This document shows, in pieces, positions 19,762-48,634 of a stretch of 52,244 nucleotides of DNA. The notes under the pieces were generated by a model. The model saw only the letters and a program-made list of their open reading frames with translations, was not told the origin of the DNA and did no database searches. The stretch's first letter is position 1, and each line of letters begins with the position of its first letter. The position numbers and the translations under genes were made by a program. The DNA is from an uncultured Pseudomonadota bacterium (GTDB lineage: Bacteria > Babelota > Babeliae > Babelales > JAUPTZ01): NCBI GenBank assembly GCA_964429275.1, contig CAYSBJ010000002.1:124001-176244 (forward strand), written 5' to 3'.

Positions 19762-19925
19762 TCTTCAAGCAGCGATTATTCGCTAGCTTTTGTTTCTTAT
19801 TGAATTTACATACCTTTTTCTTGTAGTCTATTTTTGCTCGCTCATTCTTTGCACGTGCTCTTGTGTTCAAAGTGCGAGTACCGCCATAAAAGAGATGGCG
19901 GCGTGTTTTCATGTTTGGGGGATTT

Positions 19926-28358: not shown

Positions 28359-28566
28359 GAGAAACAGAAATCTTTATTGCGGCAGCGATAGCTTTTTTGG
28401 GCTCTTGATATGCTATGCGTGCAAAGGGGGATCGTTTCACTTGTCAGCAATTTTCCCTTATTGAAATGTTTTTATGACTGTAGAGTGACGGATGAGGAAT
28501 GATCGTGTAGGATGGCGGCTCTTGCGGGGTTTTTTGCCTGCTGTAGCCAAGGAAGGAACGAGTTGT

Positions 28567-29379
28567 ATGATGATCGATACCCACTGTCACCTCAATATTA
28601 TGGTAGATAAAAAGCCAGAAGAGCTTTTGCGCCAGGAACATTTCCCTGCTATAGAACACATTTTACGAGAAGCTGCTGCGTCTAATCTTTCTTATCTTAT
28701 TACCGTGGGTACCTCTATCCCTGAATCACAGAATTGTGTTGCAGTAGCAGATCGATATCAATCGTCTCCTATTGTTAAAGCTACCATTGGGGTGCATCCG
28801 TGTGATATCACCCAGCCGATTGAAGAGATTATTCGTGAGCTTGAGGCAATTGTTTTTTCTCCGACTGGAAAACATGTGGTAGCGATTGGTGAAATTGGTC
28901 TTGATTATTATCATCAGCCATACGACAAGGAACTTCAGGCGCAAGTGTTTATTGCGCAACTTGAGCTGGCCAAGAAGCATAATTTGCCGGTTGTTATCCA
29001 CATTCGTGATGCCGGAGCAGATGCATTGACGATTTTAGAAAAATATAAAAATGACCTTTGTGGTGTTATTCATTGTTTTTCGCTCGATTTGGCTGCTGCC
29101 GAGAGAGTTATTTCTTGGGGATGGTATATTGGCATTGATGGTCCAATTACCTACCCAAAAAACCATGATTTACGCTCTGTAGTTGCTACAGTGCCATTGA
29201 CTGGCATTGTGATGGAAACTGACGCCCCGTTCTTGCCGCCGCAGCATTTGCGGGGCAAAAGGAATAGTCCGGCTAATCTTGGCATTATTGCACAGGCTAT
29301 TGCTGATGCGCGAGGGATTTCACTTGCAGAAGTTGTTGCGCAGACAGCAAAAAATGCTCGGGCATTGTTTCGGCTTTAG
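28567..29379 (+). CDS. tatD: TatD-family deoxyribonuclease
   Basis: MIDTHCHL, GVHP, AIGEIGLDY, IHIR, HCFS and ETDAPFL. Start at 28567 (ORF track 28492). Confidence 0.95.
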   Translation: MMIDTHCHLNIMVDKKPEELLRQEHFPAIEHILREAAASNLSYLITVGTSIPESQNCVAVADRYQSSPIVKATIGVHPCDITQPIEEIIRELEAIVFSPTGKHVVAIGEIGLDYYHQPYDKELQAQVFIAQLELAKKHNLPVVIHIRDAGADALTILEKYKNDLCGVIHCFSLDLAAAERVISWGWYIGIDGPITYPKNHDLRSVVATVPLTGIVMETDAPFLPPQHLRGKRNSPANLGIIAQAIADARGISLAEVVAQTAKNARALFRL

Positions 29380-31304
29380 AATTCTTCGGTTGTTCTTTTT
29401 ATAAGCTGTTCAGTGTACTCGCTAAGCCCTTCTTTTGATTCTACGCGTTTGAGGTGTTCGTAGGCATACTGAAGAACTCGTTCATCAAAGCCTTCTCGCG
29501 CCAGAAGGTCGAGGGCGATGACAGTAGCATTGATGCCGGGCTTGAGAGTGTATGGATAGGTGAACGACCCATCATTGTTTTTGTAAGCAGCAACGTGATG
29601 ATTTGTGAATTGGCTTGTTTGTTCATCACTAAGCTTGGTTAAATGAAAATAGTGGGTTGCTAGTATGAGCAGACTACTTGGGCACTTACCCAGTTCTTTG
29701 CCGATACCATAGGCTGCTGCAGCGCCAGCTGCTGGATTGGTACAACGAAACATCTCATCCATGACGGTAAGTGCGTATTCGTTTTCTTTTAGATGCATAA
29801 TTTGTGTGATTAGCTCATTGGCACGGCGAACTTCAGCTCGGTGTTGCGAGAGCGCATTACCGGCATCCTCAACGATATTGAGGTAGGTATTTAGGTGGGC
29901 AAACGGTGTTAAGTGTATTGCTTTAGCAGGTACGACGGTAATTGTTTGGGCGAAAAGGGAGGCTAGGACAATCCCCTTGATGATAGTTGATTTACCTCCG
30001 GCATTTGGGCCGGTAATAGTCATGTTGCGGGCCATTTTTCCACCGAGCTCTATGCTGTTGGCAATCGCACGGTTTGGCTGCAAATTAGGGTGCCAGAAGC
30101 CTTCAATGGACAGGTGTGGACCGCTGCCCAATTTCTCATACGTAGCGTAGCAGTAATGGTTTTCCAAGTTTTGATACTCGCGGACCAATGTTGCAATACT
30201 TAAGAGGGCATCAAGTTCGCCAATGGCACTCAAAACGGATGTCAGACGGCTTTGAATTGATAGGAAGCGCGACAGTGAGGCGAGTACTGAGCCCAGTCCA
30301 AGTGAAAAGTAACCCTTATCTTGTTGAAATGCTTTACTCGTAAGGCTGTGAAAAAAGGTGTGTATATCGGTATTTTGTTTGCCACTGAATTTTTGAATGA
30401 CTTTGATAGGTGCAATATTAGCAGAAGAAAAACGACGACCATATGCCCCTACGTTGATGAGTGTTTCTCCGAGCGCAACGAGACTATGCAGTTTTTGTTT
30501 GAGTGACGCGATCAACATGCGGCGGTTGCGCAGCTTGGAATACATTGTTTTCCATGCAATGGCAAGTCCCAATGCGGTAAAGCTTACCGAAACGCCGTTA
30601 AATATTTTTTCTTTTGTGGAAGCACGGCCATCTTGTTCTTTCTCGAAGAAAAACGTTTTTAAAAACTGTGTCCCGGCAAGACCAAAAATAGGAGAAAGAC
30701 TTTCAAAGACATCATAGAATCGACGCCTAAGTTCTAGGCTTATCGGCGAACGGAGCTTGGCGATCTTGCCACTGAAAAGTAGTTGGGCCATATTGTTGCC
30801 GTAAATGATGTCATTTTTATTCCAGAGCGCAAGCAGTTGCGGTTCTTTTTCTGCAAATGGGGTAATGAGGTTTTGCAAGGCAATACGCCCGCCATCGTTT
30901 TCTACCAAGAATTTGATTACTCGTTGACGTTCTTTCAGGAGCGTGATATCCGTGGTTGGTGTGAGTAACATATTGGCGAGGGAGCATTCACCGAGCGTTG
31001 TTTTAGTACGACTAATTCCTTTGAGTACTGTAAAATGTGGCTTGCTTGTATCATAGAAAAGGATGTTGAGGTCATTAATTGTCGTTTTATTAAGAGTGGT
31101 TTTTTGTGCAATATTGCGGTGTTTACTTCCATCTTTGAGGATTGATAGGACTGTTGCATACCGTTCATGCGAGCTCAGAATTTCATCCTCTTCTTTGAGT
31201 GAAGAAAGCCCAGGCATCATGGCATCAGCAATAACATCATAACTTGTTTGTGCAGTAAGAGGATTGAAAAATAGTGCTATTAATAGCACGAAGGAACGGT
31301 TCAT
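29376..31304 (-). CDS. MutS-related ATPase D (signal peptide, lever-like region, hydrophobic hairpin, domain V)
   Basis: Walker A GPNAGGKST, Walker B VMDEMF and ATHY intact; signature degenerate (EDAGNALSQHRAE). No mismatch-binding domain I. Confidence 0.9.
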   Translation of the reverse strand: MNRSFVLLIALFFNPLTAQTSYDVIADAMMPGLSSLKEEDEILSSHERYATVLSILKDGSKHRNIAQKTTLNKTTINDLNILFYDTSKPHFTVLKGISRTKTTLGECSLANMLLTPTTDITLLKERQRVIKFLVENDGGRIALQNLITPFAEKEPQLLALWNKNDIIYGNNMAQLLFSGKIAKLRSPISLELRRRFYDVFESLSPIFGLAGTQFLKTFFFEKEQDGRASTKEKIFNGVSVSFTALGLAIAWKTMYSKLRNRRMLIASLKQKLHSLVALGETLINVGAYGRRFSSANIAPIKVIQKFSGKQNTDIHTFFHSLTSKAFQQDKGYFSLGLGSVLASLSRFLSIQSRLTSVLSAIGELDALLSIATLVREYQNLENHYCYATYEKLGSGPHLSIEGFWHPNLQPNRAIANSIELGGKMARNMTITGPNAGGKSTIIKGIVLASLFAQTITVVPAKAIHLTPFAHLNTYLNIVEDAGNALSQHRAEVRRANELITQIMHLKENEYALTVMDEMFRCTNPAAGAAAAYGIGKELGKCPSSLLILATHYFHLTKLSDEQTSQFTNHHVAAYKNNDGSFTYPYTLKPGINATVIALDLLAREGFDERVLQYAYEHLKRVESKEGLSEYTEQLIKRTTEEF

Positions 31305-31308
31305 ATGA

Positions 31309-33279
31309 TCAGATACCTATGCTTGCAAGTTGTGCTTCCATTTCAGCAATCATTGCGGAAGGAAGTTTTTCTTCTTTGAAGATAGTCGTTGACAGTTGTG
31401 GGCTTTGCACGCCAGGTGTGAGCGTATAGGTTTGTACGGTTTTACCGTCAAAAGCGCTTGGGAGTATGTAGTTTGAAAATTGCAGAGAGTTTTGTCTTCC
31501 TAAAATACTCAGCGATAAAAAATTTGTGGCATGGAGCGCTATGCTGTTTGGTAGTTCGCCCAAGTAGCGGGCGACAGCGTATGCGGCTGCCTGGCCAGCA
31601 CCGGCTTCTGTTCCGGTGAAGGTTGCGTCAGCGATGGTAAAGCTAAAATGTCCGGCAGGCATTTGCTTTATGTGGTTAAATAATTGAAGGGCGCGGTACA
31701 GTTCTGTTTTGAACAGAGAACGATCATTTGCCAAGTCGTCTTTGATGTTGGCATAAATATTGATGCTGCTGTAGGCCGTTGCAGTGTAGCTGCGTGCCAG
31801 ACCAATCCCAATTGATTGAGCACATAAGACGTTGAGTGCAATGCTTTGAAGAACGGTTGACTTGCCACTTTCAAAGATGCCCGTGATAATAGCATTTTGG
31901 GGGTTTTTATCGCCAAGTTTAATCGAATTTAGTACCGGTTTTTCACGAGAGAGCACATGCCAAAAGTTTTGTATGTCAAGAAGAGGTCTGTCTGCGCCTT
32001 CAACAAAAGTGGTGAAGCAAAGTGGTTTCTCTTTGCTATCCCGTGACTTAAGATACCATGATGCAAGGCTACTATATGCATCAAAAGCGCCTACAAGCCC
32101 AATTCCTTTAAGAATGCTTTTGCGACAATTGCGGAGCAGATCGATTATGAGAATTAAGTCGCCACCCAAAACATGAGCCGAGGTTCTGCTGTTGAATGCT
32201 GTACCCATAATAATATCGCGCAATTTTTTTACTTTTGGATGGTCTATAGTGAGAGTAATGTCTATTTCATCACTGAGACATTGCAGTGCTGGATTTTGAT
32301 CAAAGTGTTCTTTGAGCCGTTCTGTTGCGGTAAAAAAGACTTTAAGGGGAAGTAGTGCGTCGTAAAAATAATTCATTGCCTTGAATCGGGCTCGTATCCA
32401 CGCAACAATACCAGGAAGCTGGATACCAGCATTATATGCCAGCAGAACTGCAAGTGTTGCTCCAACCACGCGGTGATCAACATTGAATTTGCTTTCTATT
32501 TCTTCTTTTGATGTGTGAGAATATCCCAAAATCCCTTTTATATTGAGCATGGGAAGTGCGATAATGCCGGCTCCATACCAAATATCGCCAAACATTTTGG
32601 CAACACGATTCCACCCTTGATTGCCTCGTGGGCCAAAACTGCGAAAGAAAAACTCATGCTGATAAATACGTAGTCCTTTGTCGTAAAGAGGATGTTCTTT
32701 GCTCGTTAATCCAAGGAGTTGTTCTTGCACCTGTTTGATGCTGGCACAGATGTTAATGATATCGGTAAGAACAGATGGATTCTCGCATAAAGCTTGGATA
32801 GCTATTTGCCTGCTTTGTATGCGCTGCACGTCAATAATAGGTGTTGTGAGGAGGCGGGCTAAAAATATTTTACCCAAAAGAGTTTGCATTTCTGGGGCAA
32901 TACCGCTCAGAACGCTTGGTTCTTGGTCGATAAGGCGAAGACTTTGCCAAGTGTCCGGCTCAAAAAGGGCCCGTTTTTCAAGCGCATACGAAGGAGTATC
33001 AAGTTGTGACATAAGCTCGAGTGCCATCTCGGTTTGCGTGGGTAAGGATAGAGAGAAGGGGGTTGAAAGACTATCCTTTTGGTCTGTAGTTACATCGGTA
33101 AGCTGTTGGGTGGGTCTTTTTTGCTCACCAAGGCTCTGGCGAAAAGCAATGAGTAAATACTCATATTGCTGTTGGACAGGAGTGAGTTTGCGTGCTTCTT
33201 TAGGCAGGATGAGAGCTTCACCGGAAAGAGTGGTCAGGCAGCAGATGAGCAGAAAAGAAGAGAAATGCCAACGGACCAT
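31309..33279 (-). CDS. MutS-related ATPase C, catalytically degenerate
   Basis: Walker A GIFESGKST, Walker B TIADATF (no catalytic Glu), ATNF (no His); signature DDLANDRSLFKTE largely retained. Confidence 0.88.
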   Translation of the reverse strand: MVRWHFSSFLLICCLTTLSGEALILPKEARKLTPVQQQYEYLLIAFRQSLGEQKRPTQQLTDVTTDQKDSLSTPFSLSLPTQTEMALELMSQLDTPSYALEKRALFEPDTWQSLRLIDQEPSVLSGIAPEMQTLLGKIFLARLLTTPIIDVQRIQSRQIAIQALCENPSVLTDIINICASIKQVQEQLLGLTSKEHPLYDKGLRIYQHEFFFRSFGPRGNQGWNRVAKMFGDIWYGAGIIALPMLNIKGILGYSHTSKEEIESKFNVDHRVVGATLAVLLAYNAGIQLPGIVAWIRARFKAMNYFYDALLPLKVFFTATERLKEHFDQNPALQCLSDEIDITLTIDHPKVKKLRDIIMGTAFNSRTSAHVLGGDLILIIDLLRNCRKSILKGIGLVGAFDAYSSLASWYLKSRDSKEKPLCFTTFVEGADRPLLDIQNFWHVLSREKPVLNSIKLGDKNPQNAIITGIFESGKSTVLQSIALNVLCAQSIGIGLARSYTATAYSSINIYANIKDDLANDRSLFKTELYRALQLFNHIKQMPAGHFSFTIADATFTGTEAGAGQAAAYAVARYLGELPNSIALHATNFLSLSILGRQNSLQFSNYILPSAFDGKTVQTYTLTPGVQSPQLSTTIFKEEKLPSAMIAEMEAQLASIGI

Positions 33280-33316
33280 ACTGCAAAGCCTCTAGGTAAG
33301 TGCTGAAAAACCTTTG

Positions 33317-35332
33317 TTACAAAAGCATTCTATCGCGTTTTAGCCCTTTTTTATAGAGGAATTCTTCGGCTCTGGCAAGAATGTCGGAATCAAAGCCTGC
33401 TTTTCTGGCCAAATCAATAGCAATAACTTGGTACGAGCGCCCTGGCTCGAGTTTAAAAGTATGAATAATATCGCCATTTTCCTCTTTTACGATTGAGACA
33501 TGGTAATTAGTAAAAAAGTGGTTGGTATGGTGCGGCAGGGTGGTGAGTCGGGTAAAGTGGGTGGCGGCGATAGGCATACAGTTTGTGAGTTTCGAGAGTC
33601 CGTAGCAAATGCCAAAGGAGGCGGCTTCACCTTCTGCAGGGGCAGTGCTGCTGAGGAGTTCATCAACGATGATAAAAGAAAATTTGTCTGGGGGAAGATT
33701 ATAAGCACTGTGCACAATTGTACTGATTCGGTCTTCTTCTGCTTGGAAGAGTGAACGGCCTTGAGCGATATTGTCAACCGGGTTCAAGAAGGTAAGGATT
33801 TTGCTCATAGGGGTGAATGTGACATCGCTTGCTGGTGCAATGCCGAGTGTTTGTCCCAGGAGCACGCAGAGGGCAATAGACCGTATATTCATGGATTTGC
33901 CGGAGGCATTGGGGCCAGTAACGACCATGCCAGGATTATTGTCATTTCCTAAAGTTATGCTGTTCAAGACTGCTTTTTCTGACGGGATGAAGGGGTGATA
34001 ATAATTGGTTGCAGCGAGATAGGGGGTGGTACTTTGGCAATAACGAGCAAAGCACCAGGGAGTTGCAGAGTTTGCTTTTTCTTGCATGAGCGTGGCCAGG
34101 CTTAGATACGCCTCTAGTGCACCGATACCCCTGAAGACCTCTGAAAAGCTCGCTTTTATGTTAAGAAACTGCGGGATAGCGTGGAGTACTTTGCCAATGT
34201 AGGACAGGTGGTAGGAATTTGATTGAAATGCTGGATTTGCAAGATTTGTAAGGAATGCTTTTTGTTTTTTGTTTGTTCCTAGTGCAAATTCTTTAATGGC
34301 GGCATGGTTGTAAAGATGCTCGCTGAGTATCGGATCATTCGCGATGAGTGCAAAGATGCGCTGTATGATTGTGCTGCAGGTTATGAGCACTCGAGTGCGC
34401 TGGCGAATTTGCGCGGCGAGATTTGCATATGACTGCATTGAGCGTTTCCATTGGTCAAACTCGATTAACGAAGGAACCATTGAGACAATTGTAGAAAGAA
34501 AAGCATAGAGATTTTCTTCATTTCTTGCTTTTTTCTCTTCTGCGTTCAGAGGGGCATCGTCACTCTTTATTGAGGTTACAGCTTTAAGCCACCCGGGTTG
34601 AGCACTTGCATTTTCCATGCCACGTCCGTATTTCATGTGCATCGTGCGGATTATGGTATTTATGGTATCTAAAATCAGGAAATCGATAACCGGTTTCCAG
34701 TCCTTACGGCGACGGTTAAATTCGAGCCAGAAGGCCCCATTCGCCTCGTTATATTTTTTAAAATTACCTGCGTAGAAAGTCTTCTTTACATAATTGGTGT
34801 ACAAAATATCATCGGTATTCCAGAGGCTGTAGAGGTTTTCTTCAATAGTTGCTAGTTCTTGAAATAATGCCTTCAGTGCCTGCGCAAGCGGCTGGTTGTT
34901 CATGAGGTGCGTGATGATCACTTGATGGGTTTGAAGCACGGTTACGTTACTGGATGGATGGGCCATGAATGTTGCCAATCCTATCTTCCCATTAAGCGAG
35001 GAGCCGCGATACATCTTTTCTAAAAGTGTATAGTCAGGACGTTGATCATTGTAAAAAAAGAGATTGAGATCACGTATTGTTTTGGTATCAATAATTTCTT
35101 CAGCTGCAGTTTCTTGCTTGGCACCAAGCAGCGAAAATAATGCTTCATGCTTTTCATAATCGCTCAATGCTACTGCTGGAAATGTTAGTTTTTTCCCATG
35201 GGTGAGATTTATTTTTTGGTTTAATTTTATTGCAGGAAAGTTTTGAAGAATTTCCTGCCGTATTCTTTCGTATGGGCTGGCATACAGAATGGGCAATGTG
35301 CTCAGAAGAATACTTATTAAAAGTAGCATCAT
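33317..35332 (-). CDS. MutS-related ATPase B' (paralogue of 37389-39515)
   Basis: GPNASGKSM, DNIAQGRSLFQAE, IIVDELLSST, ATHF; signal peptide. Confidence 0.9.
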   Translation of the reverse strand: MMLLLISILLSTLPILYASPYERIRQEILQNFPAIKLNQKINLTHGKKLTFPAVALSDYEKHEALFSLLGAKQETAAEEIIDTKTIRDLNLFFYNDQRPDYTLLEKMYRGSSLNGKIGLATFMAHPSSNVTVLQTHQVIITHLMNNQPLAQALKALFQELATIEENLYSLWNTDDILYTNYVKKTFYAGNFKKYNEANGAFWLEFNRRRKDWKPVIDFLILDTINTIIRTMHMKYGRGMENASAQPGWLKAVTSIKSDDAPLNAEEKKARNEENLYAFLSTIVSMVPSLIEFDQWKRSMQSYANLAAQIRQRTRVLITCSTIIQRIFALIANDPILSEHLYNHAAIKEFALGTNKKQKAFLTNLANPAFQSNSYHLSYIGKVLHAIPQFLNIKASFSEVFRGIGALEAYLSLATLMQEKANSATPWCFARYCQSTTPYLAATNYYHPFIPSEKAVLNSITLGNDNNPGMVVTGPNASGKSMNIRSIALCVLLGQTLGIAPASDVTFTPMSKILTFLNPVDNIAQGRSLFQAEEDRISTIVHSAYNLPPDKFSFIIVDELLSSTAPAEGEAASFGICYGLSKLTNCMPIAATHFTRLTTLPHHTNHFFTNYHVSIVKEENGDIIHTFKLEPGRSYQVIAIDLARKAGFDSDILARAEEFLYKKGLKRDRMLL

Positions 35333-37305
35333 ATGCGATCCTTCTTTGGCAAGTAATGGTGCGGGTTGTTTAGAACGTCGCGCATCTTTTTTGTCATGAC
35401 TGATGGGAGCCCTATTTGTTCTAATAGGTCAGGGGCTATTTGTTGTGTTGTCGCACCAAATTGTATGTGGTAGGGATATACAAAATTGCCGGTGGCATCT
35501 TTTTGTACCACAACCTTCATGTTTTTAAAGCGCGTAGGGTCTTGAGTTTCTAGGTCAACTAGGCCAGAGAAGTGCGTTGATAACAGTGTGATGCTATTTG
35601 GGTAGGTTGCGAGTTTTTCCGCCACAGCAAAGGCGAGGGCCTCTCCTACTCGTGCCTCGGTGCCGGTGCAGATTTCATCTAAGATGGTCAGGCTAAATTG
35701 ATTTTGGGGAAGTTCGTCGATACGCTTGAGTAATGCGAGTGCGCGGGCTAATTCTGCACGAAAGAGCGATTGTTGCTTGCTTGAATCATCGGTAATATTG
35801 AGATAGGTACCGATGCGATGAAAAGGAGTAAAAACAAATCGCCTTGCCGGCGCAATGCCAATTGATTGCCCTAAGAGGCAGCCAAGAGCTAATGCTTTCA
35901 TGATAGTTGATTTGCCACCTGCGTTAACACCACTGATGATGAGATTGTTCGGGTGCTGAGGCGCGGCAAATGACAATGTGTTTAACACGACTTTATCTGC
36001 CGGAATGGCTGGATGATAAAAATCTTGCGCATGAATAATGGGCGTTTGTGCATCTGTGATAAATTCAACAAAGCAGTACGGGGCATTGCTTTGTTGCCGC
36101 TCGCGCATGAGTGTGGCGATGGACAGATAGGCATCGATATACCCAACAAGGACAAGGCCATTGAGCATGGTTGGCAGGACTTTTTTTGCTTCAAGGAGTG
36201 CATTTGCCACAGTACCTTGGTTTGACAAGATGCTTTGCATGATCCCTGGAATGCTGCCATCTTTTGGAGGGGTAAAGGCGCCACTAGAGAGGCGTTTTGC
36301 AAGTGGCTTTAATTGTGGCGCATAATCGATCGCATAACGTTCACTATAGACAGAAAACTCGGAGAATTCGCTCGTTTTTGCGGCTGCAGTGATGATTGGA
36401 AGCTGTAATAAAAGTACGTGTACAGCAGAAAGGCGTCGCTGAATGTAGGCCGTTGTTTCAGCCAAATCTTTGAGGAGGCCAATCGTTTCGTAGGCGCGAT
36501 AACCAGAAAGCGCAGAAATGAGCGCAAAAACCGCTATCAATCCAGCATTCTGGTGCTCTTCGTATGACTTGATTCCTTGTGCAGCTTTTTTTCCCATTAT
36601 GCCTGCGGTATAGCAGAAAAATGGCAACATACAGATTGAGGTTAGGTGCAGCGCATTGAGGGCAGTACTTCTCATGAATGGTGAAGGAATTCGACCAAAG
36701 GTATCATACCAATTCAGGATAATCTCTTGATTAAAAAAATCAGTTGCACGGAGCATAGCAATCAGATTTACTTCTTCTGCAGCAACGCATGTGACAGCGG
36801 CTTGTAGTGTATTGAAAAGGTGGTCATCGGTCGTAAGTCGTTTAATGAATTGCTGGCGCCCTTGTAGGCATGAAAGATCAGTAAGGGGGTCGAGCAGCAG
36901 TCGCGTGAGTGTTAACTCACCGACCATCGTTTTTGTCCGTTTAAGAGAGCCGACGACGGTTTTTTCCGAAATTCTGCTGGCATTTGTGAAAAATTCTAAA
37001 TTCTGCCAGACCTCTTGGTCAATAACGTTGCTTTGTGGTAATGGGTCGGTTGCAGCGATGTAGCTTTTGAGCTTTTCAAGAGACGCGAATACGAGGTCTG
37101 CACGTGTGAGGCTTGGAAGCTCAAGTTTGCGGCTTGTCGTAGTAATGCCTTCATCTGGGTTATTGTGCTCTTCCTCTGGCTTAATGAGCATGCCAACGAA
37201 TGCTGCTTCGATATCTTGGTATCGGTTTTGTATGGTGGGGACGCTACTCCAGCAAGTGCCGGAAAAAAGGGCAATGCCCAAGAAAAGCAGCGGATAAGAA
37301 TACAT
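35329..37305 (-). CDS. MutS-related ATPase A' (paralogue of 39518-41776)
   Basis: GVNAGGKST, DDSSKQQSLFRAE, TILDEICTGT, STHF; signal peptide; ATGA overlap with the next gene. Confidence 0.9.
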   Translation of the reverse strand: MYSYPLLFLGIALFSGTCWSSVPTIQNRYQDIEAAFVGMLIKPEEEHNNPDEGITTTSRKLELPSLTRADLVFASLEKLKSYIAATDPLPQSNVIDQEVWQNLEFFTNASRISEKTVVGSLKRTKTMVGELTLTRLLLDPLTDLSCLQGRQQFIKRLTTDDHLFNTLQAAVTCVAAEEVNLIAMLRATDFFNQEIILNWYDTFGRIPSPFMRSTALNALHLTSICMLPFFCYTAGIMGKKAAQGIKSYEEHQNAGLIAVFALISALSGYRAYETIGLLKDLAETTAYIQRRLSAVHVLLLQLPIITAAAKTSEFSEFSVYSERYAIDYAPQLKPLAKRLSSGAFTPPKDGSIPGIMQSILSNQGTVANALLEAKKVLPTMLNGLVLVGYIDAYLSIATLMRERQQSNAPYCFVEFITDAQTPIIHAQDFYHPAIPADKVVLNTLSFAAPQHPNNLIISGVNAGGKSTIMKALALGCLLGQSIGIAPARRFVFTPFHRIGTYLNITDDSSKQQSLFRAELARALALLKRIDELPQNQFSLTILDEICTGTEARVGEALAFAVAEKLATYPNSITLLSTHFSGLVDLETQDPTRFKNMKVVVQKDATGNFVYPYHIQFGATTQQIAPDLLEQIGLPSVMTKKMRDVLNNPHHYLPKKDRI

Positions 37306-37374
37306 AAGATGCCTGTCCTTGGTACCATGTGGTTACGGACAGGCATCTTAGTTTTTTTAATGAAGCTAAATCAA
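37305..37374 (-). promoter_or_regulatory. 14-bp perfect inverted repeat covering the RBS/start of 35329-37305, overlapped by a candidate internal promoter
   Basis: TAAGATGCCTGTCC (37305-37318) pairs with GGACAGGCATCTTA (37337-37350). Minus strand shows TTGATT-N18-TAAGAT at 37345-37374. Confidence 0.6.
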
Positions 37375-37388
37375 TGGATGATCAGATA

Positions 37389-39515
37389 TTAAATTAGACG
37401 GCCGCGTTCAATACCTTGTTCTTTGAGGAATTGGTCGGCAAAATCTAGAATTTCAGGGTCAAAACCTTGTTGGCGCGCTAAGTCGATGGCGATAACTTGG
37501 TGCGCACGGCCTGGTTCTAACTTGAATGGATGTGTGAAGCTTCCGTCCGTGTTTCTTATCACAGATACGTGATAATTCATGTAAAACCCATTGGTATTTT
37601 GTGGCAGTGTCGTCAATTTTACAAAGTGAGTCGCCATGATTGGCATGCAATTTGGGTATTTTGATAAGCCGTAGCAAATGCCAAGGGTAGCCGCTTCGCC
37701 CTCAGTTGGCGCAGTACTGCTTAATAATTCGTCTGCAACGATGAAGGCAAATTGGTCTTTTGGTAAGGCGACTGTTTCTTGGACGATATACTTAATGCGG
37801 TCTTCTTCTGCTTGAAACAATGAACGGCCTTCAGCGATATTATCTACCGGGTTCAGATAAGTCAGCATCTTGCTCATTGGGGTTAGAAGGGCATTTCGTG
37901 CTGGTGCAATACCAAGCGATTGGCTGAGTAGAAGGCAGAGCGCAATGGAACGAATATTCATCGACTTCCCAGAGGCGTTTGGGCCGGTAACAATCATGCC
38001 TTGATGGCCATTCTCTCCGAGCACAATACTGTTGAGGACGGACTTGTCTGCCGGTATCAGTGGATGAGAATAATCTGCCAAGTTTAGATAGGGGGTGGCC
38101 ATAGTGGCATAACGAGCAAAGCACCATGGTGTTGGTGATGCATTCTTTTCATCGATAAGAGTGCCAATGCTCAAGTAGGCTTCAAGAGCACCCAGCGTTT
38201 TGAACAATGGGCGGAAGTTGTTTCGTATACGTAAGAATTGCGGTACCGCTTGCAAAACTTTACCAACGTTGGCTAAGTAGTAACTATTCGAGGTAAAAGT
38301 ACTGCTTGAGATGGTAGCAAAAAACTTCTTAAGCTTTGCATTTTCTCCGTTTGCAAAAGCGGCAAGATCAGAAAAGCCTTCAAGGTTGTCGCAGAGGAAT
38401 TGCTCTTCTTGAATCGTTTTGTGGATATCAAGAACAATACGTCGCCATTGAACGAAAACAGCAAAGCGAGTGCGTAGATAGGTGACGAATGCCTTATATG
38501 CTTGTACGCTTTTCCACCAGGTTGGTATGTTTGCTGCTATTGGCACCAGTATCGCGAACGCGGAGAGAGTCATGAGTGCATTTATCTGATTAAGTTCTTT
38601 TTTGCCGCGCACGAAGTCGGGGATAGAGGCTATTTGACATAGAAGGTCGTAAGTCACCGGTTTCCATGGACCAACGCCAGCGAAGACTTTTATTTTTTCG
38701 CCATTGGGGAGTGTAATATAATGACCATCCCTAAAACGTTTTTGTGCTTCTGAAAAAGGGATCTCAGCTACTTTATGGACCCCGTAGGGAACCAATATTT
38801 GCGTAATGAGCCCGAGGCCGACTTCTATTTTTGCTAGAGAAATGAGAGGTTTAATGTCATTCATGCGACGGTTAAATTCGAGCCATGCAGCATCACTGCT
38901 GTTACGATAGCGATTTTGATTACCCTTGTAGAATGTTTCCTGCGCAAACTTGCTGTAGATAAGGTCGTTATCGTTCCAAAGGCTATACATTTTCCCTTCA
39001 ATGCCGGCGAGTTCTTTAAAAAGCGTAGCTAGTTTTTTGCCTAATTGCGGACGTGCCATGAGATAGCGCGCAAGATTTTGGCGCCTTTCGAGTTCTTCCT
39101 GATTTGTTGAAGGCATAACTATCCACTTTGCTTGCGCCATTTTTCCGTTCAAAGAAGCGCCGCGATAAGTAGATTCCAGAATGGTATAGTCAGGGCGATC
39201 TATGTTGTAGAAAAAGAGGTTTAAGTCGGTAATAGATTTGGCATCAAGGCATGATGCTACCTCTTCAACATTTTTATCCCCCCCCAGAAATTGGAGGAGA
39301 ATGTTATGCATTTCATATGGAGAGAGTTTATATGCTGGGAATGAGACGCCATTTTTCCCTTTTTTTACTTCCTGAGTTGTGCGAACTGCGGGGAAGTTTT
39401 TGAGTATCTCTGCTCGCAGTAACTCATATGGCTGCGTATTTTGTCCCATAAGCGCCATGCTTAGTCCGCAGAAAAAGAGTGTCTTGGTAATAGTCTTTAA
39501 TGAGAAACGTTTCAT
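37389..39515 (-). CDS. MutS-related ATPase B
   Basis: GPNASGKSM, DNIAEGRSLFQAE, IVADELLSST, ATHF; signal peptide; two central hydrophobic segments. Confidence 0.9.
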   Translation of the reverse strand: MKRFSLKTITKTLFFCGLSMALMGQNTQPYELLRAEILKNFPAVRTTQEVKKGKNGVSFPAYKLSPYEMHNILLQFLGGDKNVEEVASCLDAKSITDLNLFFYNIDRPDYTILESTYRGASLNGKMAQAKWIVMPSTNQEELERRQNLARYLMARPQLGKKLATLFKELAGIEGKMYSLWNDNDLIYSKFAQETFYKGNQNRYRNSSDAAWLEFNRRMNDIKPLISLAKIEVGLGLITQILVPYGVHKVAEIPFSEAQKRFRDGHYITLPNGEKIKVFAGVGPWKPVTYDLLCQIASIPDFVRGKKELNQINALMTLSAFAILVPIAANIPTWWKSVQAYKAFVTYLRTRFAVFVQWRRIVLDIHKTIQEEQFLCDNLEGFSDLAAFANGENAKLKKFFATISSSTFTSNSYYLANVGKVLQAVPQFLRIRNNFRPLFKTLGALEAYLSIGTLIDEKNASPTPWCFARYATMATPYLNLADYSHPLIPADKSVLNSIVLGENGHQGMIVTGPNASGKSMNIRSIALCLLLSQSLGIAPARNALLTPMSKMLTYLNPVDNIAEGRSLFQAEEDRIKYIVQETVALPKDQFAFIVADELLSSTAPTEGEAATLGICYGLSKYPNCMPIMATHFVKLTTLPQNTNGFYMNYHVSVIRNTDGSFTHPFKLEPGRAHQVIAIDLARQQGFDPEILDFADQFLKEQGIERGRLI

Positions 39516-39517
39516 GG

Positions 39518-41776
39518 TTATTCCTTTGTCGGTACGTAGCGGTCAGGGTGATTAAGAACATCACGCATTTTTTGTGTCATAACAAGTGGTAGACCTATTT
39601 TTTCAAGGAGGTCAGGGGCGATTTGTTGTGTTGTCGATCCTTCGTAGAGGCCGTATGGATACACAAATTCACCGTTTTCATCTTTTTCTACGATAACTTT
39701 CATATTTTTATAGAGATCTTTTCTATTCTTCGCCAGCGTTGTAAGACCAGGAAAGTGCGAGGCGAGGAGCAAGAGGCTATTTGAGTACATGCCAAGTTTT
39801 TTGGCAATTGCAACAGCAAGTGCTTCCCCTTCTATGCGTTCGGTACCAGTACAAATTTCATCCAAGATGGTAAAGCTGAATTGATTGCGTGGCAGTGTAT
39901 TTACGGTGCTAAGCAGCTCTTGTGCCCGGGTGATTTCAGCGCGGAAGAGTGATTGTTGCTTGCTCACGTCATCAGTGATATTGAGGTAAGTGTTGATGGT
40001 ATGAAATGGCGTAAATGAGAACGAACGTGCCGGCGCTACACCAAAGACCTGGCCAAAGATGCAGCATAAAGCAATTGCTTTCATGTGTGTTGATTTACCA
40101 CCTGCGTTAACGCCGCTTATCATGATGCTGCTTGGGTTATTATTGGTTCCTATAGCGATCGAATTGGTGACAACCGTTTTTTCATTGACCACTGGGTGAT
40201 GGAAATCTGTTGCATTGATAACAGGGGTCGATTGATTTTCTAAGATTTCTACGAAACAGTATGGCGCGTGCGACTGCTTTCGTTCTCGAAGCAGCTTTGC
40301 TACGGAAAGGTAGGCGTCAAGGTGGCCAATGAGAATCATGCCATCACTTGCTTTTGCAATAACTTTTTTTGCCTCAAGAAGAGCGTTCGCAACGTCCCCC
40401 TTGCCAGAAAAAACAGTTTTAAGTGTTCCTGGCATGCCCCCATCGGCCGGTGGTACAAATTTATTCTTGTCAAGGCGACGAGCTAATTCTTCAAGTTCGA
40501 CTTCTGTAGTGTCAGCGTATCGTTCACTTTGTACCCTTAATTCGCTTACCATTTGTACGGCTGGCAAGCTGTTGATCGCTGCTAATGCACGGAAAAGTGC
40601 GTTAACCGAAGAAAGGCGCCGTTGAATGTACGCTGCGGTCTGCGCGTCGCGGCGTAGTTGCCCAAATACGCTGATGGTAACAAACGTCATGTACGCGCCA
40701 AAAATACCTATAGCGGTTGGTATAAATGCTTTAAGCGTTTTATAATTGCTGCGATTCTTCATCTCATTGATGGCTTGAGTTACCTGAGATTCAATTTGCT
40801 GATCAGTTTCATGAGATCCGCGAAACCGCCGGAGCATTTTCCGACTCCTGCGAGCTGCACTGGCACAAGAGCCATCAAAATCAGTAATGAACTTAATGGC
40901 AGCAACGTCAAGAATTGTTGCGCTGAGTGCGCCTACGGCAAAGGTGAACATAGATAGACCAGCTTGCAAGTTTAGGGCGCCGCTAATGGCTTTTGATGAT
41001 TGTAAGATTCCTACTGTATTGTAGGAATTGAGAATATGGTCTTGTCGCATGCTGTCAGTGGCGAGCATAAGACTAATGAGGCTTTCTTCCTCTTGTGCCA
41101 CTGCTTTGATGATGGCACAGAAATCTTCAAATACATTGTCATCTTCGACAAGTAAGCGAATAAATTTTTGTCGTGCTTTGATGATATCAGCGTTTGTTTC
41201 TGGGTCTAAAAGCATACGAGTATAGATAAGCTCACCGATTGTTGTTTCGGTGCGCTTCGTGGCGCCTACGACGGTTTTGTGCCCGATGCGGCTGCTGTTG
41301 GTGAACAACTCCAGATTTTCCCATACATTACGATTGGTAACGGCAGTGCGTGCAATAGGGTCCGCGTTTGCGTTAAAAAATTTGAGCTTGCCCAGTGAGT
41401 TGAATATGAGGTCCGCCCGATCAAGTTTTGGAAGCGAATAAGGGTTTTTGGCAAAAGCGGCCTTAAAGAATCCCCAGAGTTGCTGGAAGCCATTTTGTAA
41501 TGCAGGAGCCGGCTTTAATTTTTCCAACTCTTTCTTTGTCAGCATGCTGGTGTAGAGTTTTTCGATATCCTGGTAACGATTATCGATTACAATAGCCGGT
41601 TTTTTGCTCGCAGTGGCACTCTTTGGCTTGTTAGCTGTGGTTGGCTTTTTTGGAGTTGCTGTTTTGTTGATGGTTGTTTTTCGCGTTGTTTTCTTTGGTG
41701 CTACCGGCAACAGAAGGCCAGGCATCAAAAGACAAAACGCGCTCAGCAGAGCGCGACGGCAGGTATGATTAAACAT
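39518..41776 (-). CDS. MutS-related ATPase A
   Basis: GVNAGGKST, DDVSKQQSLFRAE, TILDEICTGT, ASHF; signal peptide followed by a K/T/P-rich linker; two central hydrophobic segments. Confidence 0.9.
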   Translation of the reverse strand: MFNHTCRRALLSAFCLLMPGLLLPVAPKKTTRKTTINKTATPKKPTTANKPKSATASKKPAIVIDNRYQDIEKLYTSMLTKKELEKLKPAPALQNGFQQLWGFFKAAFAKNPYSLPKLDRADLIFNSLGKLKFFNANADPIARTAVTNRNVWENLELFTNSSRIGHKTVVGATKRTETTIGELIYTRMLLDPETNADIIKARQKFIRLLVEDDNVFEDFCAIIKAVAQEEESLISLMLATDSMRQDHILNSYNTVGILQSSKAISGALNLQAGLSMFTFAVGALSATILDVAAIKFITDFDGSCASAARRSRKMLRRFRGSHETDQQIESQVTQAINEMKNRSNYKTLKAFIPTAIGIFGAYMTFVTISVFGQLRRDAQTAAYIQRRLSSVNALFRALAAINSLPAVQMVSELRVQSERYADTTEVELEELARRLDKNKFVPPADGGMPGTLKTVFSGKGDVANALLEAKKVIAKASDGMILIGHLDAYLSVAKLLRERKQSHAPYCFVEILENQSTPVINATDFHHPVVNEKTVVTNSIAIGTNNNPSSIMISGVNAGGKSTHMKAIALCCIFGQVFGVAPARSFSFTPFHTINTYLNITDDVSKQQSLFRAEITRAQELLSTVNTLPRNQFSFTILDEICTGTERIEGEALAVAIAKKLGMYSNSLLLLASHFPGLTTLAKNRKDLYKNMKVIVEKDENGEFVYPYGLYEGSTTQQIAPDLLEKIGLPLVMTQKMRDVLNHPDRYVPTKE

Positions 41777-41849: not shown

Positions 41850-42368
41850 TTACTTGCGGCGAGTTTTGGTGATCGATCGGCGGCGGGCTCCATACCAGGC
41901 TCGCATGAGCATTTCATAGGGGCCGTAGTCAAGGGCAATATGGCTTATGGCCCCCACTACAAAGTAGATATAGAGGTCTAGGGCATATGCGGTGTACTCC
42001 GGACAATAGACGTATACGAGGAGCGGGCCAATGAGGGGACCCCCTAGAATAAACCAAAAGTTATGGGTAATGCCGCGATGGGGCAAAAGAGGGGGAATAA
42101 TGGCCAATGCACTCAGTAAAATGCTAAAAACGATATGCTTGGCCAGGAGGGCGGCTACGAGCAGCGGAATAACCAAGGCATACAACAGCTGTTGCCCTTT
42201 ACTCTTGATATCAATGTCAGGGAAAAGGCCCCCGAGCAGCCCTGCGACAAGGCGCGCAAGGTTTGCAAAGCAGAACCAGGCCCAAAAGGGGGTTTTGGCA
42301 TGAGTAGCGACAATAAGAAGGAGTGCTGTACTGACGGCAGCGCTGCTGTGGGTTTTGTATCCTGGCAT
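41850..42368 (-). CDS. Membrane-bound metal-dependent hydrolase (YdjM-like)
   Basis: MPGYKTH, FPDIDIKS, HRGITH and SHIALD. Start at 42368 (ORF track 42470). Confidence 0.88.
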   Translation of the reverse strand: MPGYKTHSSAAVSTALLLIVATHAKTPFWAWFCFANLARLVAGLLGGLFPDIDIKSKGQQLLYALVIPLLVAALLAKHIVFSILLSALAIIPPLLPHRGITHNFWFILGGPLIGPLLVYVYCPEYTAYALDLYIYFVVGAISHIALDYGPYEMLMRAWYGARRRSITKTRRK

Positions 42369-42390
42369 GGTGGGTGCGGTGTGGACGAGG

Positions 42391-42918
42391 CTAGAACAGC
42401 GATGTTTGCTTAGGCGGCAGGGGGTCTTTGGTCGCACGAGACTGTGGCCAAAAGCTGCGAGGTATGGCACCGCGCCAGAGCTTTTCGAACTCTTCTGATG
42501 GCTTTATTTTTTGATCAAGGCCAGCATTTGCAAGGGCGTCTGCTTCAGTATTGTACTCACGGCGAACGTGGGTAATAACACAAGGAACAAATGCTTTGAG
42601 TTTATTAGCTAGCTGATTCCAGTGAATGAGCAACGGGTCTTTGACTCTATACTCTCGGTTCATTTGCTTAACCACGAGCAATGAGTCGGCATGGATATGG
42701 ACCGGGCCTTTCCAGCCTTTTTGTAAAATGATCTGCAGCGCGAGGACCAGCGCGGCGTACTCAGCGACATTATTGGTGTAGCGGTAGAATGAGTACCCGA
42801 CGGCAAAGAATGGTTCTTCTTTGTTATTGATGTAGGCAAAGGCGCCCAGGCCAGCAGGACCGGGGTTTCCACGGCTTGCGCCATCAATAAAAACGTTCAA
42901 GGTCTGTTGTGTGGTCAT
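42391..42918 (-). CDS. rnhA: Ribonuclease HI
   Basis: FIDGASRGNPGPAG, TNNVAEY, DSLLVVKQM and HVRREYNTEADALAN. Confidence 0.93.
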   Translation of the reverse strand: MTTQQTLNVFIDGASRGNPGPAGLGAFAYINNKEEPFFAVGYSFYRYTNNVAEYAALVLALQIILQKGWKGPVHIHADSLLVVKQMNREYRVKDPLLIHWNQLANKLKAFVPCVITHVRREYNTEADALANAGLDQKIKPSEEFEKLWRGAIPRSFWPQSRATKDPLPPKQTSLF

Positions 42919-45919: not shown

Positions 45920-46831
45920 ATGAAAATAAAAATGGTTCTTTCCGGTATGATTTTTGCGGGCTTACTTGGGAGTTTCGTCCCGATAGCTTTCAATGCACCG
46001 TTGGAAAAAGGGTCTGGTATCACGCATTACGATATGTTGCCGGAAGAGAGCAAAGATATTTTAAAGAAGAGCGAGTGGCTTGAAGGGCCGTCGAAAGGTG
46101 ATATTTTGAAAGCATTTCTCTGGCTCGGAGGTTCATTGGCAGCGCGCAAATATATCACAACTATTTTAAAGCGTGATAAGCAAGCATGTCAGCTTAAATT
46201 GCAGCGGCAACACGTTGGGCAAGGAGCTGTCAACCCGATGGCGCAGTTGCTTCGTGCTTTGCAAATGCAACAAGGAGGAGAGGGTGGTATGCCAGAGATG
46301 CCAACCGAACCGGAGCTTGAAGCAGCAGAGCCGATTGCCGAAGAAGAACTTGCCTGGAATCCGCATGATATCTTGTCACCCGGTAAGCGTAAGTTTTTGT
46401 CTGTACTCTCATGGGTAGTGACCGCTGTGGCGGTTCTCAGTGTGATTAACGTTGCCGACCGTTTAAAAGATGCATACCGTGGCAATACGGTGCCATCGGC
46501 AGTCCGTAGCCACATCAATCGTCATGGCGAAATTGATAAAAAAGTTGCGGATGCACGTACGGTTATCGCAGATAATCCTGGCTTTGCAGTACAGATTGCA
46601 CGTGAATTGCATAAAGAGTATGGTTTGAACAGCTTACGAGGAGTTGGAGGCAGTGATCAGGGGGAGACTATGGCAAAAGTGCTTTCGGCTCGTAATGAAG
46701 ACACCACGAAAGTAATCCGTGAATTAAATGAATTGCGCAAAAACAGTGCACTTATTAACTTTGCTAACCGCAGCGGATTGAACGTGCTCGGCTGGTTTGC
46801 GTATAAGCTTCATGGACTTAAGAAGTCCTAA
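45920..46831 (+). CDS. Hypothetical membrane/exported protein
   Basis: N-terminal hydrophobic leader and internal TM FLSVLSWVVTAVAVLSVI. Confidence 0.75.
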   Translation: MKIKMVLSGMIFAGLLGSFVPIAFNAPLEKGSGITHYDMLPEESKDILKKSEWLEGPSKGDILKAFLWLGGSLAARKYITTILKRDKQACQLKLQRQHVGQGAVNPMAQLLRALQMQQGGEGGMPEMPTEPELEAAEPIAEEELAWNPHDILSPGKRKFLSVLSWVVTAVAVLSVINVADRLKDAYRGNTVPSAVRSHINRHGEIDKKVADARTVIADNPGFAVQIARELHKEYGLNSLRGVGGSDQGETMAKVLSARNEDTTKVIRELNELRKNSALINFANRSGLNVLGWFAYKLHGLKKS

Positions 46832-47964: not shown

Positions 47965-48043
47965 AAAAACTCCTGAGATACGCTAATTATTAGCGATATA
48001 GACTGATTTAATTATAGCGAATATCGCAAAGAAAGGAAGCAAG

Positions 48044-48634
48044 ATGTACACCCCTTGGTCGGTAATAGTCCAGGAATTAGTCGCAGGTGGCAGTTCCAGG
48101 ACTCCAGATATTGTACGGTTCGCGTATGCACACAAGGCATCCGGTGGCGTACTTTTTCAGTCTTTAGCGCAGGTTCTTATGTCGTGTGATCCCAAGCAGG
48201 GCTTGCTGACCCAAGGATATTCCTTGGCCTGGTATCTGAGGGAGCGAGAGTGGCTTGCCTTGACCGGGTGCGCCCATGACTCTTTGATGTTTCCTTCATT
48301 GCGCATGACGGCGCTTGCAGCTCTATTAACGGCAGCTATTTACTTGGACGATACTGTTGCATTAGTTGCTTCTGGCGAGCGGGCTTGCCGGTATCATGAG
48401 GATGGAGTGCTTTCTCAACCACAGTTAATATCATTATTTTTTCAAGCAATTGTGCCATATTACCCAAAAAAGCAGCGTGGCGAAGAGATTTTTTTGCTTC
48501 GGCAGGTTCTGCATGCCTACCGTCCTGCCTTTAATCACTTACTCTACACGTACCTGCAGACGAACTTGCACGCCTATACTACGGACATAGCTCAAGAGCT
48601 CATTGGTCAGCCTGATGTTTTCTCGTGCAGTTAG
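48044..48634 (+). CDS. Hypothetical protein
   Basis: AAGGAAG RBS; fills an otherwise empty 500-bp gap; the 3' end overlaps dnaE convergently by 96 bp. Confidence 0.55.
   Translation: MYTPWSVIVQELVAGGSSRTPDIVRFAYAHKASGGVLFQSLAQVLMSCDPKQGLLTQGYSLAWYLREREWLALTGCAHDSLMFPSLRMTALAALLTAAIYLDDTVALVASGERACRYHEDGVLSQPQLISLFFQAIVPYYPKKQRGEEIFLLRQVLHAYRPAFNHLLYTYLQTNLHAYTTDIAQELIGQPDVFSCS

Follow-up and report, generated by a model that had tools for sequence, protein, structure and literature searches.

The window analysed in this work is a stretch of 52,244 nucleotides (nt) of contig CAYSBJ010000002.1 (positions 124,001 to 176,244), from the genome of an uncultured bacterium of the GTDB lineage Babelota; Babeliae; Babelales. 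Its minus strand carries an array of six co-oriented genes coding for proteins of 642–752 amino acids (aa), which are ABC-type ATPases of the MutS superfamily. An earlier reading, made from the sequence alone (the sequence-only reading), took them for three pairs of exported or membrane-bound proteins, and the six genes, their coordinates and their spacing were all reproduced by our open reading frame (ORF) calls.

Gene 1 (A type; 39518..41776, 752 aa) codes for a leader, a Lys/Thr/Pro-rich linker, domain III-like levers and a MutS domain V ATPase, and is followed, only 2 nt past its stop codon, by the start of gene 2 (B type; 37389..39515, 708 aa). After a spacer of 83 nt (37306..37388) come gene 3 (A′ type; 35329..37305, 658 aa) and gene 4 (B′ type; 33317..35332, 671 aa), which overlap by the four nucleotides ATGA, and after a second spacer of 37 nt (33280..33316) come gene 5 (A″ type; 31309..33279, 656 aa), with a degenerate ATP site, and gene 6 (B″ type; 29376..31304, 642 aa), with an altered signature. 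These assignments draw on ORF calls, Pfam profiles and trees for genes 1 to 4, and for gene 2 on an AlphaFold model as well. From gene 1 to gene 6, the ORF calls thus give gaps of 2, 83, −4, 37 and 4 nt, and the short gaps within pairs fit translational coupling. A GGA/AGG motif resembling a Shine-Dalgarno sequence lies 7–13 nt 5′ of all six starts, that is, before the leader-encoding codons. A consensus scan listed no terminator-like site inside the 83-nt spacer between pairs 1 and 2, and operon-wide it found promoter- and terminator-like sites no more often than in shuffled sequence.

Duplication of a two-gene cassette

Over their full length, genes 1 and 3 are 46% identical and genes 2 and 4 are 47% identical, against 25–37% for every other pair. 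The motifs GVNAGGKST and KQQSLFRAE are shared by genes 1 and 3, and GPNASGKSM and GRSLFQAEEDR by genes 2 and 4, just as the sequence-only reading had noticed. We built a main tree from 62 family and canonical MutS sequences of 16 genomes (IQ-TREE quick search, LG+G4, rooted on canonical MutS) and a second one from 36 sequences under a mixture model (LG+C20 with posterior mean site frequencies, quick search). The family is monophyletic in the 62-sequence tree, with a support of 100. In both trees, genes 1, 3 and 5 fall with their orthologues from a genome of the same genus (the genus-mate, G115) into one clade, A, with a Shimodaira-Hasegawa-like approximate likelihood ratio (SH-aLRT) support of 96; another, B, with a support of 99, takes in genes 2, 4 and 6, their orthologues and a gene from a second genus. 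The claim that a two-gene cassette was amplified as a unit is therefore borne out under two models. The order of the array had been given as A-B, A′-B′, C-D; its first two pairs stand, but the placement of genes 5 and 6 in the A and B clades makes of ‘C-D’ a third, older A-B pair. Going by these sequence comparisons, the array reads as A-B, A′-B′, A″-B″, one two-gene cassette copied twice.

All six genes recur in the genus-mate, separated by 2, 82, −1, 96 and 1 nt, and G113, a fragmentary genome from the same family but a different genus, has an adjacent pair resembling gene 5 (45% identity) and gene 6 (37%). Copies of genes 4 and 5, at 93% and 89% identity, occur on a contig of a metagenome-assembled genome (MAG) named Dependentiae. 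The source genome holds a seventh family member of 719 aa (L001:6194-8353, minus strand, which is G000:C2:384193-386352), a lone copy flanked by genes for a TlyA/FtsJ-like methyltransferase and an HtrA-type protease. Its clade is one of widely conserved singletons, and in the genus-mate it is a tandem pair.

Complementary loss of ATP-site motifs in the third pair

The ATPase domains of the array genes and their orthologues were aligned with two canonical Dependentiae MutS as reference. The domain V motifs are intact in five of the six array proteins, the sixth being gene 5, which has neither the Walker B Glu nor the H-loop His. The same is true of its relatives: all four A″ sequences (gene 5, those of G115 and G113, and one from a near-identical MAG, L139) are without equivalents of N616, E694 and H728 of Escherichia coli MutS. 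Their Walker A is G-[IL]-F-E-S-G-K-S-T (GIFESGKST in gene 5), with no Asn matching N616, their Walker B is D-A or D-S (D-A in gene 5), with no catalytic Glu, and their H-loop is T-N-F, with no His; the signature SLFKTE is intact in all four. The three B″ sequences (gene 6 and those of G115 and G113) keep Walker A, Walker B and H-loop, and it is their signature that differs, being SQHRAE (as in gene 6) or GAHRAE versus S-L-F in the family and S-T-F in canonical MutS. Although three catalytic residues have been lost, A″ and its genus-mate orthologue are still 69% identical.

In E. coli MutS, the ATP site of each subunit is completed by the signature loop of the other (residues 659–670, Ser668 included), and N616 and H728 are described as rearranging upon nucleotide binding (Lebbink et al. 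2010, PMC2857095). Since the signature acts in trans, the degenerate pieces of a head-to-tail A″-B″ dimer would share one of its two composite sites and the intact pieces the other. Obligate heterodimeric ABC ATPases with one regulatory, degenerate nucleotide site are known, and the motifs of pair 3, as read from the alignment, would match their arrangement of one degenerate and one consensus site. The heterodimeric ATPase proposed by the sequence-only reading is thus likely for pair 3, by this complementary loss of cis- and trans-acting motifs, but is not a trait of the family, as will be seen below. Judging from the motifs, the proposal is probably right for at least one pair.

Domain make-up and fold

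Pfam finds MutS_V (PF00488) in all six array proteins, at 47–113 bits (cut-off 30.2) and E-values of 3e-12 to 2e-32, and MutS_III (PF05192) in all six at E≤0.017; the latter matches are weak, two of them (34.3 and 34.9 bits) reaching the cut-off of 34.1 and a third scoring 33.0. Gene 1, for example, scores 95.6 bits for MutS_V and 34.3 for MutS_III. This agrees with the C-terminal domain V and the lever-like segment claimed for every gene. At E≤0.1, none of the six has a match to MutS_I (PF01624), MutS_II, MutS_IV or Smr, so that the proteins do, as had been claimed, go without the mismatch-binding domain I and without Smr, and they end 10–25 residues past domain V. No NCBIfam model claims them either: they score 46–130 bits for the MutS equivalogs (cut-offs 480–642), 13–86 bits for the MutS2 model TIGR01069 (cut-off 400) and 23–79 bits for the KamC-type model (cut-off 300).

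MutS7 is defined by a domain I and a C-terminal HNH endonuclease, and Pfam finds no HNH in the array proteins; MutS8 comprises short MutS without domain I or HNH, a kind that giant viruses share with the intracellular bacteria of protists. The array proteins are therefore not MutS1 (no domain I), MutS2 (no Smr) or MutS7 (no domain I or HNH). By their domain make-up and viral fold matches, they would belong to MutS8.

An AlphaFold2 model of gene 2, made from a family alignment of 138 sequences, has a mean predicted local distance difference test (pLDDT) of 90.6 and a predicted template modelling score of 0.86, and its top Foldseek matches in the PDB are all MutS, MSH or MutS2 chains. Against Taq MutS, E. 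coli MutS and MSH2, it aligns over 420–470 residues with Z 30–34 (VIA-align), the best being Taq MutS (Z 33.9, 448 residues, root-mean-square deviation 4.5); against E. coli MutS (Z 30–33), the aligned chain ranges begin past domain I. Residues 90–700 of the model align with the cores of MutS2 (PDB 7vuk, 9kce and 7qv3) at Z 26.4–26.5. The MutS levers correspond in the model to two very long antiparallel helices, residues 207–250 and 303–369, and in place of the DNA clamp of MutS some 50 residues form a tip that is modelled with low confidence and includes a small beta hairpin.

Both hydrophobic stretches of gene 2 lie in these helices: the first (residues 224–243; 38787..38846) in the distal part of the outbound helix 207–250, and the second (residues 308–332; 38520..38594) in the distal part of the return helix 303–369. 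In gene 1, hydropathy places them at residues 273–298 and 350–374, with a loop between (40655..40960). According to the model, then, the ‘membrane hairpin’ of the sequence-only reading would be a hydrophobic version of the lever ends. The two central hydrophobic segments that it saw in every gene are convincing in genes 1 and 2, where the maximal 19-residue Kyte-Doolittle mean is 1.86 and 1.82, but not beyond: the means of genes 3 to 6 are 1.57, 1.46, 1.52 and 1.29, and that of the seventh paralogue is 1.25, i.e., marginal in genes 3–5 and weak in gene 6 and the seventh paralogue.

Leaders

A hydrophobic N-terminal leader is seen by hydropathy in all six genes, as had been claimed. That of gene 2 is signal-peptide-like and takes up residues 1–24 (MKRFSLKTITKTLFFCGLSMALMG; 39444..39515), and comparable leaders lie at 41696-41776 (gene 1), 37243-37305 (gene 3), 35279-35332 (gene 4), 33220-33279 (gene 5) and 31251-31304 (gene 6). 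All leaders and helices were called by in-house hydropathy scripts plus inspection, which is a crude test. The seven paralogues of the source genome begin with a short polar or basic start, followed by 9–18 uncharged hydrophobic residues, and six of the seven leaders, gene 1 being the exception, have small residues at plausible −3/−1 positions. The flank behind the leader is not basic in genes 2–6. Leaders differ in sequence and length between orthologues of the two genus-mates, and conservation begins directly behind them (NRYQDIE in the A type, PYxLLR in the B type); a variable leader followed by a conserved mature start is the pattern in which cleavable signal peptides evolve. The test is positive in 111 of 129 full-length family representatives, and in 107 of 124 under a tighter length filter.

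Export of the array proteins through the Sec pathway is thus likely, as far as their sequences tell, and only likely, given that the test is crude and has a high background in the source genome. The three secretin-domain genes of that genome count as support for export, and so do the Shine-Dalgarno-like motifs ahead of the leader codons. Among a random sample of 45 of the long ORFs behind this background, the recognisable housekeeping proteins are negative, and many positives look like genuine signal peptides. By the same crude hydropathy (267 of 479 long ORFs), the predicted exported and membrane proteome would be unusually large for a genome of 1.2 Mb.

Right after its leader, gene 1 has a Lys/Thr/Pro-rich linker of low complexity with TPKK/KKP-like repeats (residues 27–62; 41591..41698), and a shorter K-rich linker is present in its orthologue in the genus-mate. 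From its composition, this linker could be a nucleic-acid-binding tail, a targeting tail or a topology signal.

The source genome and the range of the family

The source genome (1.21 Mb, 98% complete, 46.5% G+C) has its closest named homologues annotated as ‘Candidatus Dependentiae bacterium’, which, together with the near-identical MAG contig, identifies the organism as a member of the Dependentiae. It contains eight MutS_V genes: one canonical MutS, the six genes of the array and the seventh family member. The canonical MutS, an 826-aa ORF, is the only PF01624 match in the whole genome, which also has one MutL. As the array has no domain I and a canonical MutS with domain I stands beside a MutL, the sequence-only reading was likely right that the array has a role other than mismatch repair. 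There are also about five genes for TLC-type ATP/ADP translocases, one in the window (1298-2752, minus strand) and a cluster of about four at G000:C1:344200-354495. These make of the organism an energy parasite, with ordinary mismatch repair intact.

A profile of the non-ATPase part of the seven paralogues, searched against 1.84 billion proteins, returned 1533 cluster representatives at E≤1e-3, of which 723 reach E≤1e-10, and nearly all of the 150 listed are 600–800 aa long. A full-length profile had a match in 261 of 261 genomes of the phylum, canonical MutS included, with four candidates scored per genome, and the 150 matches listed all reach at least 395 bits. Fifteen Dependentiae genomes were scored completely and then re-analysed by hmmsearch, with at least 200 bits required of a copy: four have one copy, five have two, five have three, and G115 has nine. 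The family genes are adjacent in only three of these genomes, G115, G113 and G082, and in the last the partner is degenerate, which shows that the generality of A/B pairing was overstated. That copies are mostly dispersed or single means that pairing is an elaboration of this lineage, and that elsewhere the family must work as homodimers or alone. Other tandem arrays in named MAGs (L140, L135 and L136) are recent duplicates of one type, with 75%, 60% and 45% identity. The family counts among the most amplified in this entire phylum of protist parasites.

Three family genes stand in tandem in one of these MAGs, assigned to the Babeliales (L135:1864-8434, plus strand); the first of them (521 aa) matches positions 8–452 of the profile only, and appears to be without the ATPase domain. 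In two clades of shorter members (571–717 aa; G005:C1:647463, G115:C11:23030, G108:C1:707457, G122:C1:788845, G005:C1:1261783 and G082:C8:6716), neither Walker A nor any other ATPase motif can be recognised, and these proteins may be non-catalytic partners of active copies encoded elsewhere.

Homologues in giant viruses

A scan of IMG/VR returned 63 loci with 36 distinct proteins of 560–800 aa that score above 140 bits, and up to 372, against the profile of the window family, covering its positions from about 70 to 670. Homologues of 570–735 aa lie on contigs of nucleocytoplasmic large DNA viruses (NCLDV). Among the 38 proteins scanned at eight of the viral loci, there is a gene for an NCLDV major capsid protein directly upstream at one locus, and TBP-like, Erv1/Alr, topoisomerase IB and II and ribonucleotide reductase genes at others; such neighbours mark these contigs as viral, and not as mis-binned bacteria. 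On a giant-virus contig of 376 kb, the MutS-like gene (L015:7026-8996) follows directly 3′ of the capsid gene (L015:5491-6903), both on the plus strand.

These viral proteins differ from the bacterial ones in two ways. An N-terminal hydrophobic leader is present in only one of the 36, versus 107 of 124 family representatives. A central stretch of at least 1.6, however, is present in 35 of the 36, with a median maximum of 2.08, versus 54 of the 124 representatives, with a median of 1.54 (Mann-Whitney p about 1e-12, overstated since the sequences are related). The viral hydrophobic stretch is 26–38 residues long, with a conserved Pro and Gly, and a model of one viral protein (pLDDT 83.4) has the same lever hairpin.

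Compared with predicted viral structures, the gene 2 model finds a Yasminevirus MutS-family protein (E 9e-26, template modelling (TM) score by target 0.70), then a 562-aa protein without a name, and also the ‘MutS subfamily 8’ protein of Tetraselmis virus 1 (E 2.4e-17, TM score by target 0.69), the MutS7 of the same virus reaching only 0.36. The best viral fold matches are MutS-like proteins of giant viruses, of 530–562 aa. A homologue search with a viral protein gave 894 matches, whose names are uninformative. In a scan of named genomes, the matches listed are MAGs of Babeliales/Dependentiae, a few MAGs of Pseudomonadota, Bacteroidota and Pacebacteria, and then canonical MutS; neither Amoebophilus nor Cardinium is among the 79 named genome loci listed by the scan with the viral-first alignment. 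The clusters of the ESM Atlas for one homologue carry the labels Bacteroidota and Nucleocytoviricota, and are taken here as leads only.

Surroundings of the array

A TatD-family nuclease gene (28492-29379, plus strand) is convergent to gene 6, and a TatD gene has the same arrangement beside one singleton family gene in a distant Dependentiae genome (L230:7277-8095, minus strand). Among 18 singleton loci, this is the one with a TatD gene, and five have ankyrin-repeat genes; an ankyrin-repeat gene is also found in the window, at 30-1283. The neighbourhood of the array includes a CT398-like gene, whose hint of an origin in the Chlamydiae is overruled by the named homologues from Dependentiae. A YdjM-like ORF, listed with a GTG start (41850-42470, minus strand), overlaps the end of an RNase H-like ORF (42391-42918, minus strand) by 80 nt, and its true start is probably further downstream. 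Nine other ORFs of the window, of 196–557 aa, had no Pfam match at the thresholds used (5778-11112, 16410-17711, 18660-21392 and 45920-48634).

Discussion

MutS-type ATPases are the textbook clamps of DNA repair, and those described here probably act on the host cell or the cell envelope instead. The interpretation that we prefer, to which we would give a probability of about 0.5, is that of exported A-B dimers of the MutS style, using their ATP-driven levers on a target other than a mismatch, in the host or at the interface between host and parasite. The A and B products of each pair would join head-to-tail through their ATPase domains, with one catalytic and one regulatory, non-hydrolysing site in pair 3, and would leave the bacterial cytoplasm via Sec. 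Driven by ATP, their levers would then open and close as a clamp. Its target would most likely lie inside the eukaryotic host cell or on its surface, and might be a membrane with which the hydrophobic tips of the levers engage. The host side is suggested mainly by the occurrence of the same family in giant viruses, which translate their proteins directly in the host cytoplasm, and where it goes without the leader and has the more hydrophobic tip. The tips of the bacterial proteins may be less hydrophobic because they must pass through the Sec channel without being arrested in the inner membrane, by analogy with secreted membrane effectors.

Several observations weigh against this interpretation. 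Outside the lineage of the array the family occurs mostly dispersed, with all copies apart in 12 of the 15 genomes and a single copy in four; this is the very outcome named by the sequence-only reading as contradicting it. Heterodimers are therefore not a trait of the family, and no conserved partner gene that would point to a pathway was found among the 71 neighbour proteins scanned around 18 singleton loci. Even in the array, the motifs of pairs 1 and 2 are canonical in each gene, with no complementary degeneracy; the case for their being heterodimers would be made by the alternating order, the co-duplication and the 2-nt and −4-nt junctions. The leader test, for its part, is also positive in 267 of the 479 ORFs of at least 300 aa in the source genome, and in gene 1 a Pro, probably at +1, and a linker rich in basic residues come after the hydrophobic stretch, a sequence that would favour an uncleaved anchor and a protein kept inside. 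Charged residues interrupt the outbound hydrophobic stretch even in genes 1 and 2; with this, and with the weakness of the stretches in genes 3–6, membrane insertion is unproven. The comparisons of leaders and of hydrophobicity were made between related, non-independent sequences, and an ATPase outside the cytoplasm needs ATP, which is plausible only in an energy parasite or inside a host. On the whole, then, the sequence-only reading was largely correct in what it observed, and in its interpretation was right about the cassette, probably right about heterodimers for at least one pair and plausible about export, but overstated both the hairpin and the generality of pairing.

In a doubtful alternative, the proteins are exported to the periplasm only, or are held in the inner membrane by the hairpin of the lever tips, their ATPase facing outwards, and use host ATP for, e.g., remodelling or tethering of the envelope. 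The Sec type of the leaders suits it, the two moderately hydrophobic helices of genes 1 and 2 would serve as a stop-transfer hairpin, and the roughly five TLC translocase genes, one of them in the window, imply that host ATP must cross the periplasm. Against it, the leaderless viral homologues cannot function in a periplasm, so that any function shared with them would have to lie outside of it; the proteins with leaders are the less hydrophobic ones, the opposite of what a permanent membrane anchor needs; and we know of no periplasmic ATPase of the MutS superfamily. It is somewhat less credible still that the proteins remain in the cytoplasm, with an N-terminus that is an uncleaved N-out anchor or an artefact of annotation, and target the bacterium's DNA, its ribosomes or the inner side of its membrane. 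ATP is available there, gene 1 has about 12 Lys/Arg in the 40 residues behind its leader and Pro at the likely +1, and MutS2, the closest solved relative without domain I (Z 26.4–26.5), is cytoplasmic, on collided ribosomes according to the title of a PDB entry. Six of the seven leaders, however, have the short n-region, the h-region of 9–18 residues and the small −3/−1 residues of signal peptides, the flank behind the leader is not basic in genes 2–6, and leaders are kept in 107 of 124 representatives.

Tandem duplication alone could also account for adjacency, the paralogues being independent homodimers that form no A-B complexes. Dispersed copies in most Dependentiae genomes and the single copy of four in 15, which requires that homodimers or monomers be functional in the family, speak for this, as do the other tandem arrays, made of recent duplicates of one type (75%, 60% and 45% identity). 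We nevertheless hold it unlikely for the array, where the A and B clades, both old, alternate without exception in three genomes, where gaps of 2, −4 and 4 nt are a recurrent feature confined to the inside of pairs, and where A″ is 69% conserved without three catalytic residues, with the matching signature change in its very neighbour. There is, finally, very little probability left for paralogues that bind DNA and serve repair or recombination in the bacterium. Membership of the MutS superfamily points that way, as do the TatD nuclease genes adjoining the array and one other copy, and the giant-virus literature proposes roles in genome integrity for MutS7 and MutS8 (PMC3749498); but the array proteins have leaders, no domain I and a clamp reduced to a low-confidence tip of about 50 residues, a canonical MutS and MutL are present, and 7–9 copies in a genome of 1.2 Mb are unlike a repair function.

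Returning to exported A-B dimers, it is tempting to speculate further, in a version that we regard as improbable in its entirety, that a MutS-derived motor has turned from a DNA clamp into a membrane-engaging ATPase. The hydrophobic hairpin would replace the clamp, and the dimer, standing on a membrane, would tether, bend or open it by moving its levers with ATP; the less hydrophobic bacterial form would be exported via Sec and a secretin, inserting only at host membranes, and the array would provide three dedicated heterodimers, one of them with a regulatory dead site. If this were true, a new class of host-membrane effector would be common to the viruses and bacteria of protists. Whatever the target, a branch of the MutS family appears to have left both DNA and cytoplasm, and the locus, with its three natural A-B pairs, is the clearest handle on it. 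The complementary dead and live halves of the ATP sites of one pair predict obligate heterodimers, and the contrast between bacterial forms with leaders and leaderless, more hydrophobic viral ones predicts the host cell as the site of action. Should the preferred interpretation be correct, it would account for the MutS8 genes of giant viruses, which have long lacked an explanation, and for the ‘surprising’ signal peptides of Cardinium MutS, and would add a new type of ATP-driven effector.

Comparison with known systems

Our literature search, made on article listings and text passages, turned up no account of this family in Dependentiae, of hydrophobic lever tips, of A-B cassettes or of complementary degeneracy of the ATP sites. 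MutS8 was reportedly defined by Ogata and colleagues, in the ISME Journal in 2011, for giant viruses and Amoebophilus. Like the array proteins, MutS8 has the core and ATPase domains, no mismatch-binding domain or HNH, and a distribution over giant viruses and intracellular bacteria of protists; unlike the MutS8 of giant viruses, the array proteins have leaders, less hydrophobic lever tips and an amplification by heterotypic pairs. Cardinium hertigii cEper1 expresses two MutS8-type proteins which, ‘somewhat surprisingly’, have predicted signal peptides, and for which secretion and an action on host DNA were proposed (Mann et al. 2017, PMC5698495). That intracellular bacteria may export MutS-like proteins has therefore been in print since 2017. 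The likeness of these two proteins (CAHE_0017 and CAHE_0267) to those of the array, drawn here from their description, extends to the MutS core and C-terminal domains, the signal peptide, the obligate intracellular life of the bacterium and the proposed direction towards the host. Cardinium, however, is a Bacteroidota symbiont of insects with two copies at 40% identity, and the passages on them (PMC5698495) describe no pairing, degenerate site or hydrophobic lever tips.

Other likenesses are more partial. MutS2 of Thermus, Thermotoga and Bacillus also goes without domains I and II, the gene 2 model can be aligned to it over core, levers and ATPase, and it is an example of a MutS-type clamp able to work on targets other than mismatches; it differs in having the full clamp and a C-terminal Smr nuclease, and no leader. 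As for pairing, the genes of MutS4A and MutS4B lie next to each other, the stop codon of one overlapping the start codon of the other, which suggests a heterodimer (Lin, Nei and Ma 2007, PMC2190696), and are like those of the array in encoding, side by side, two diverged MutS paralogues with ATPase domains; they belong, however, to another subfamily, found in a few free-living bacteria and archaea, and leaders do not figure in what that account says of them. MSH2-MSH6, MSH2-MSH3 and the heterodimeric ABC proteins are asymmetric head-to-tail ATPase dimers, as pair 3 would be. In the eukaryotic MSH heterodimers, though, both sites are catalytic and DNA is bound through domain I, and ABC transporters have full transmembrane domains, unlike the array proteins. 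Taken together, the family is of a known but functionally unexplained, MutS8-like kind, of which this locus is a new and unusually informative variant.

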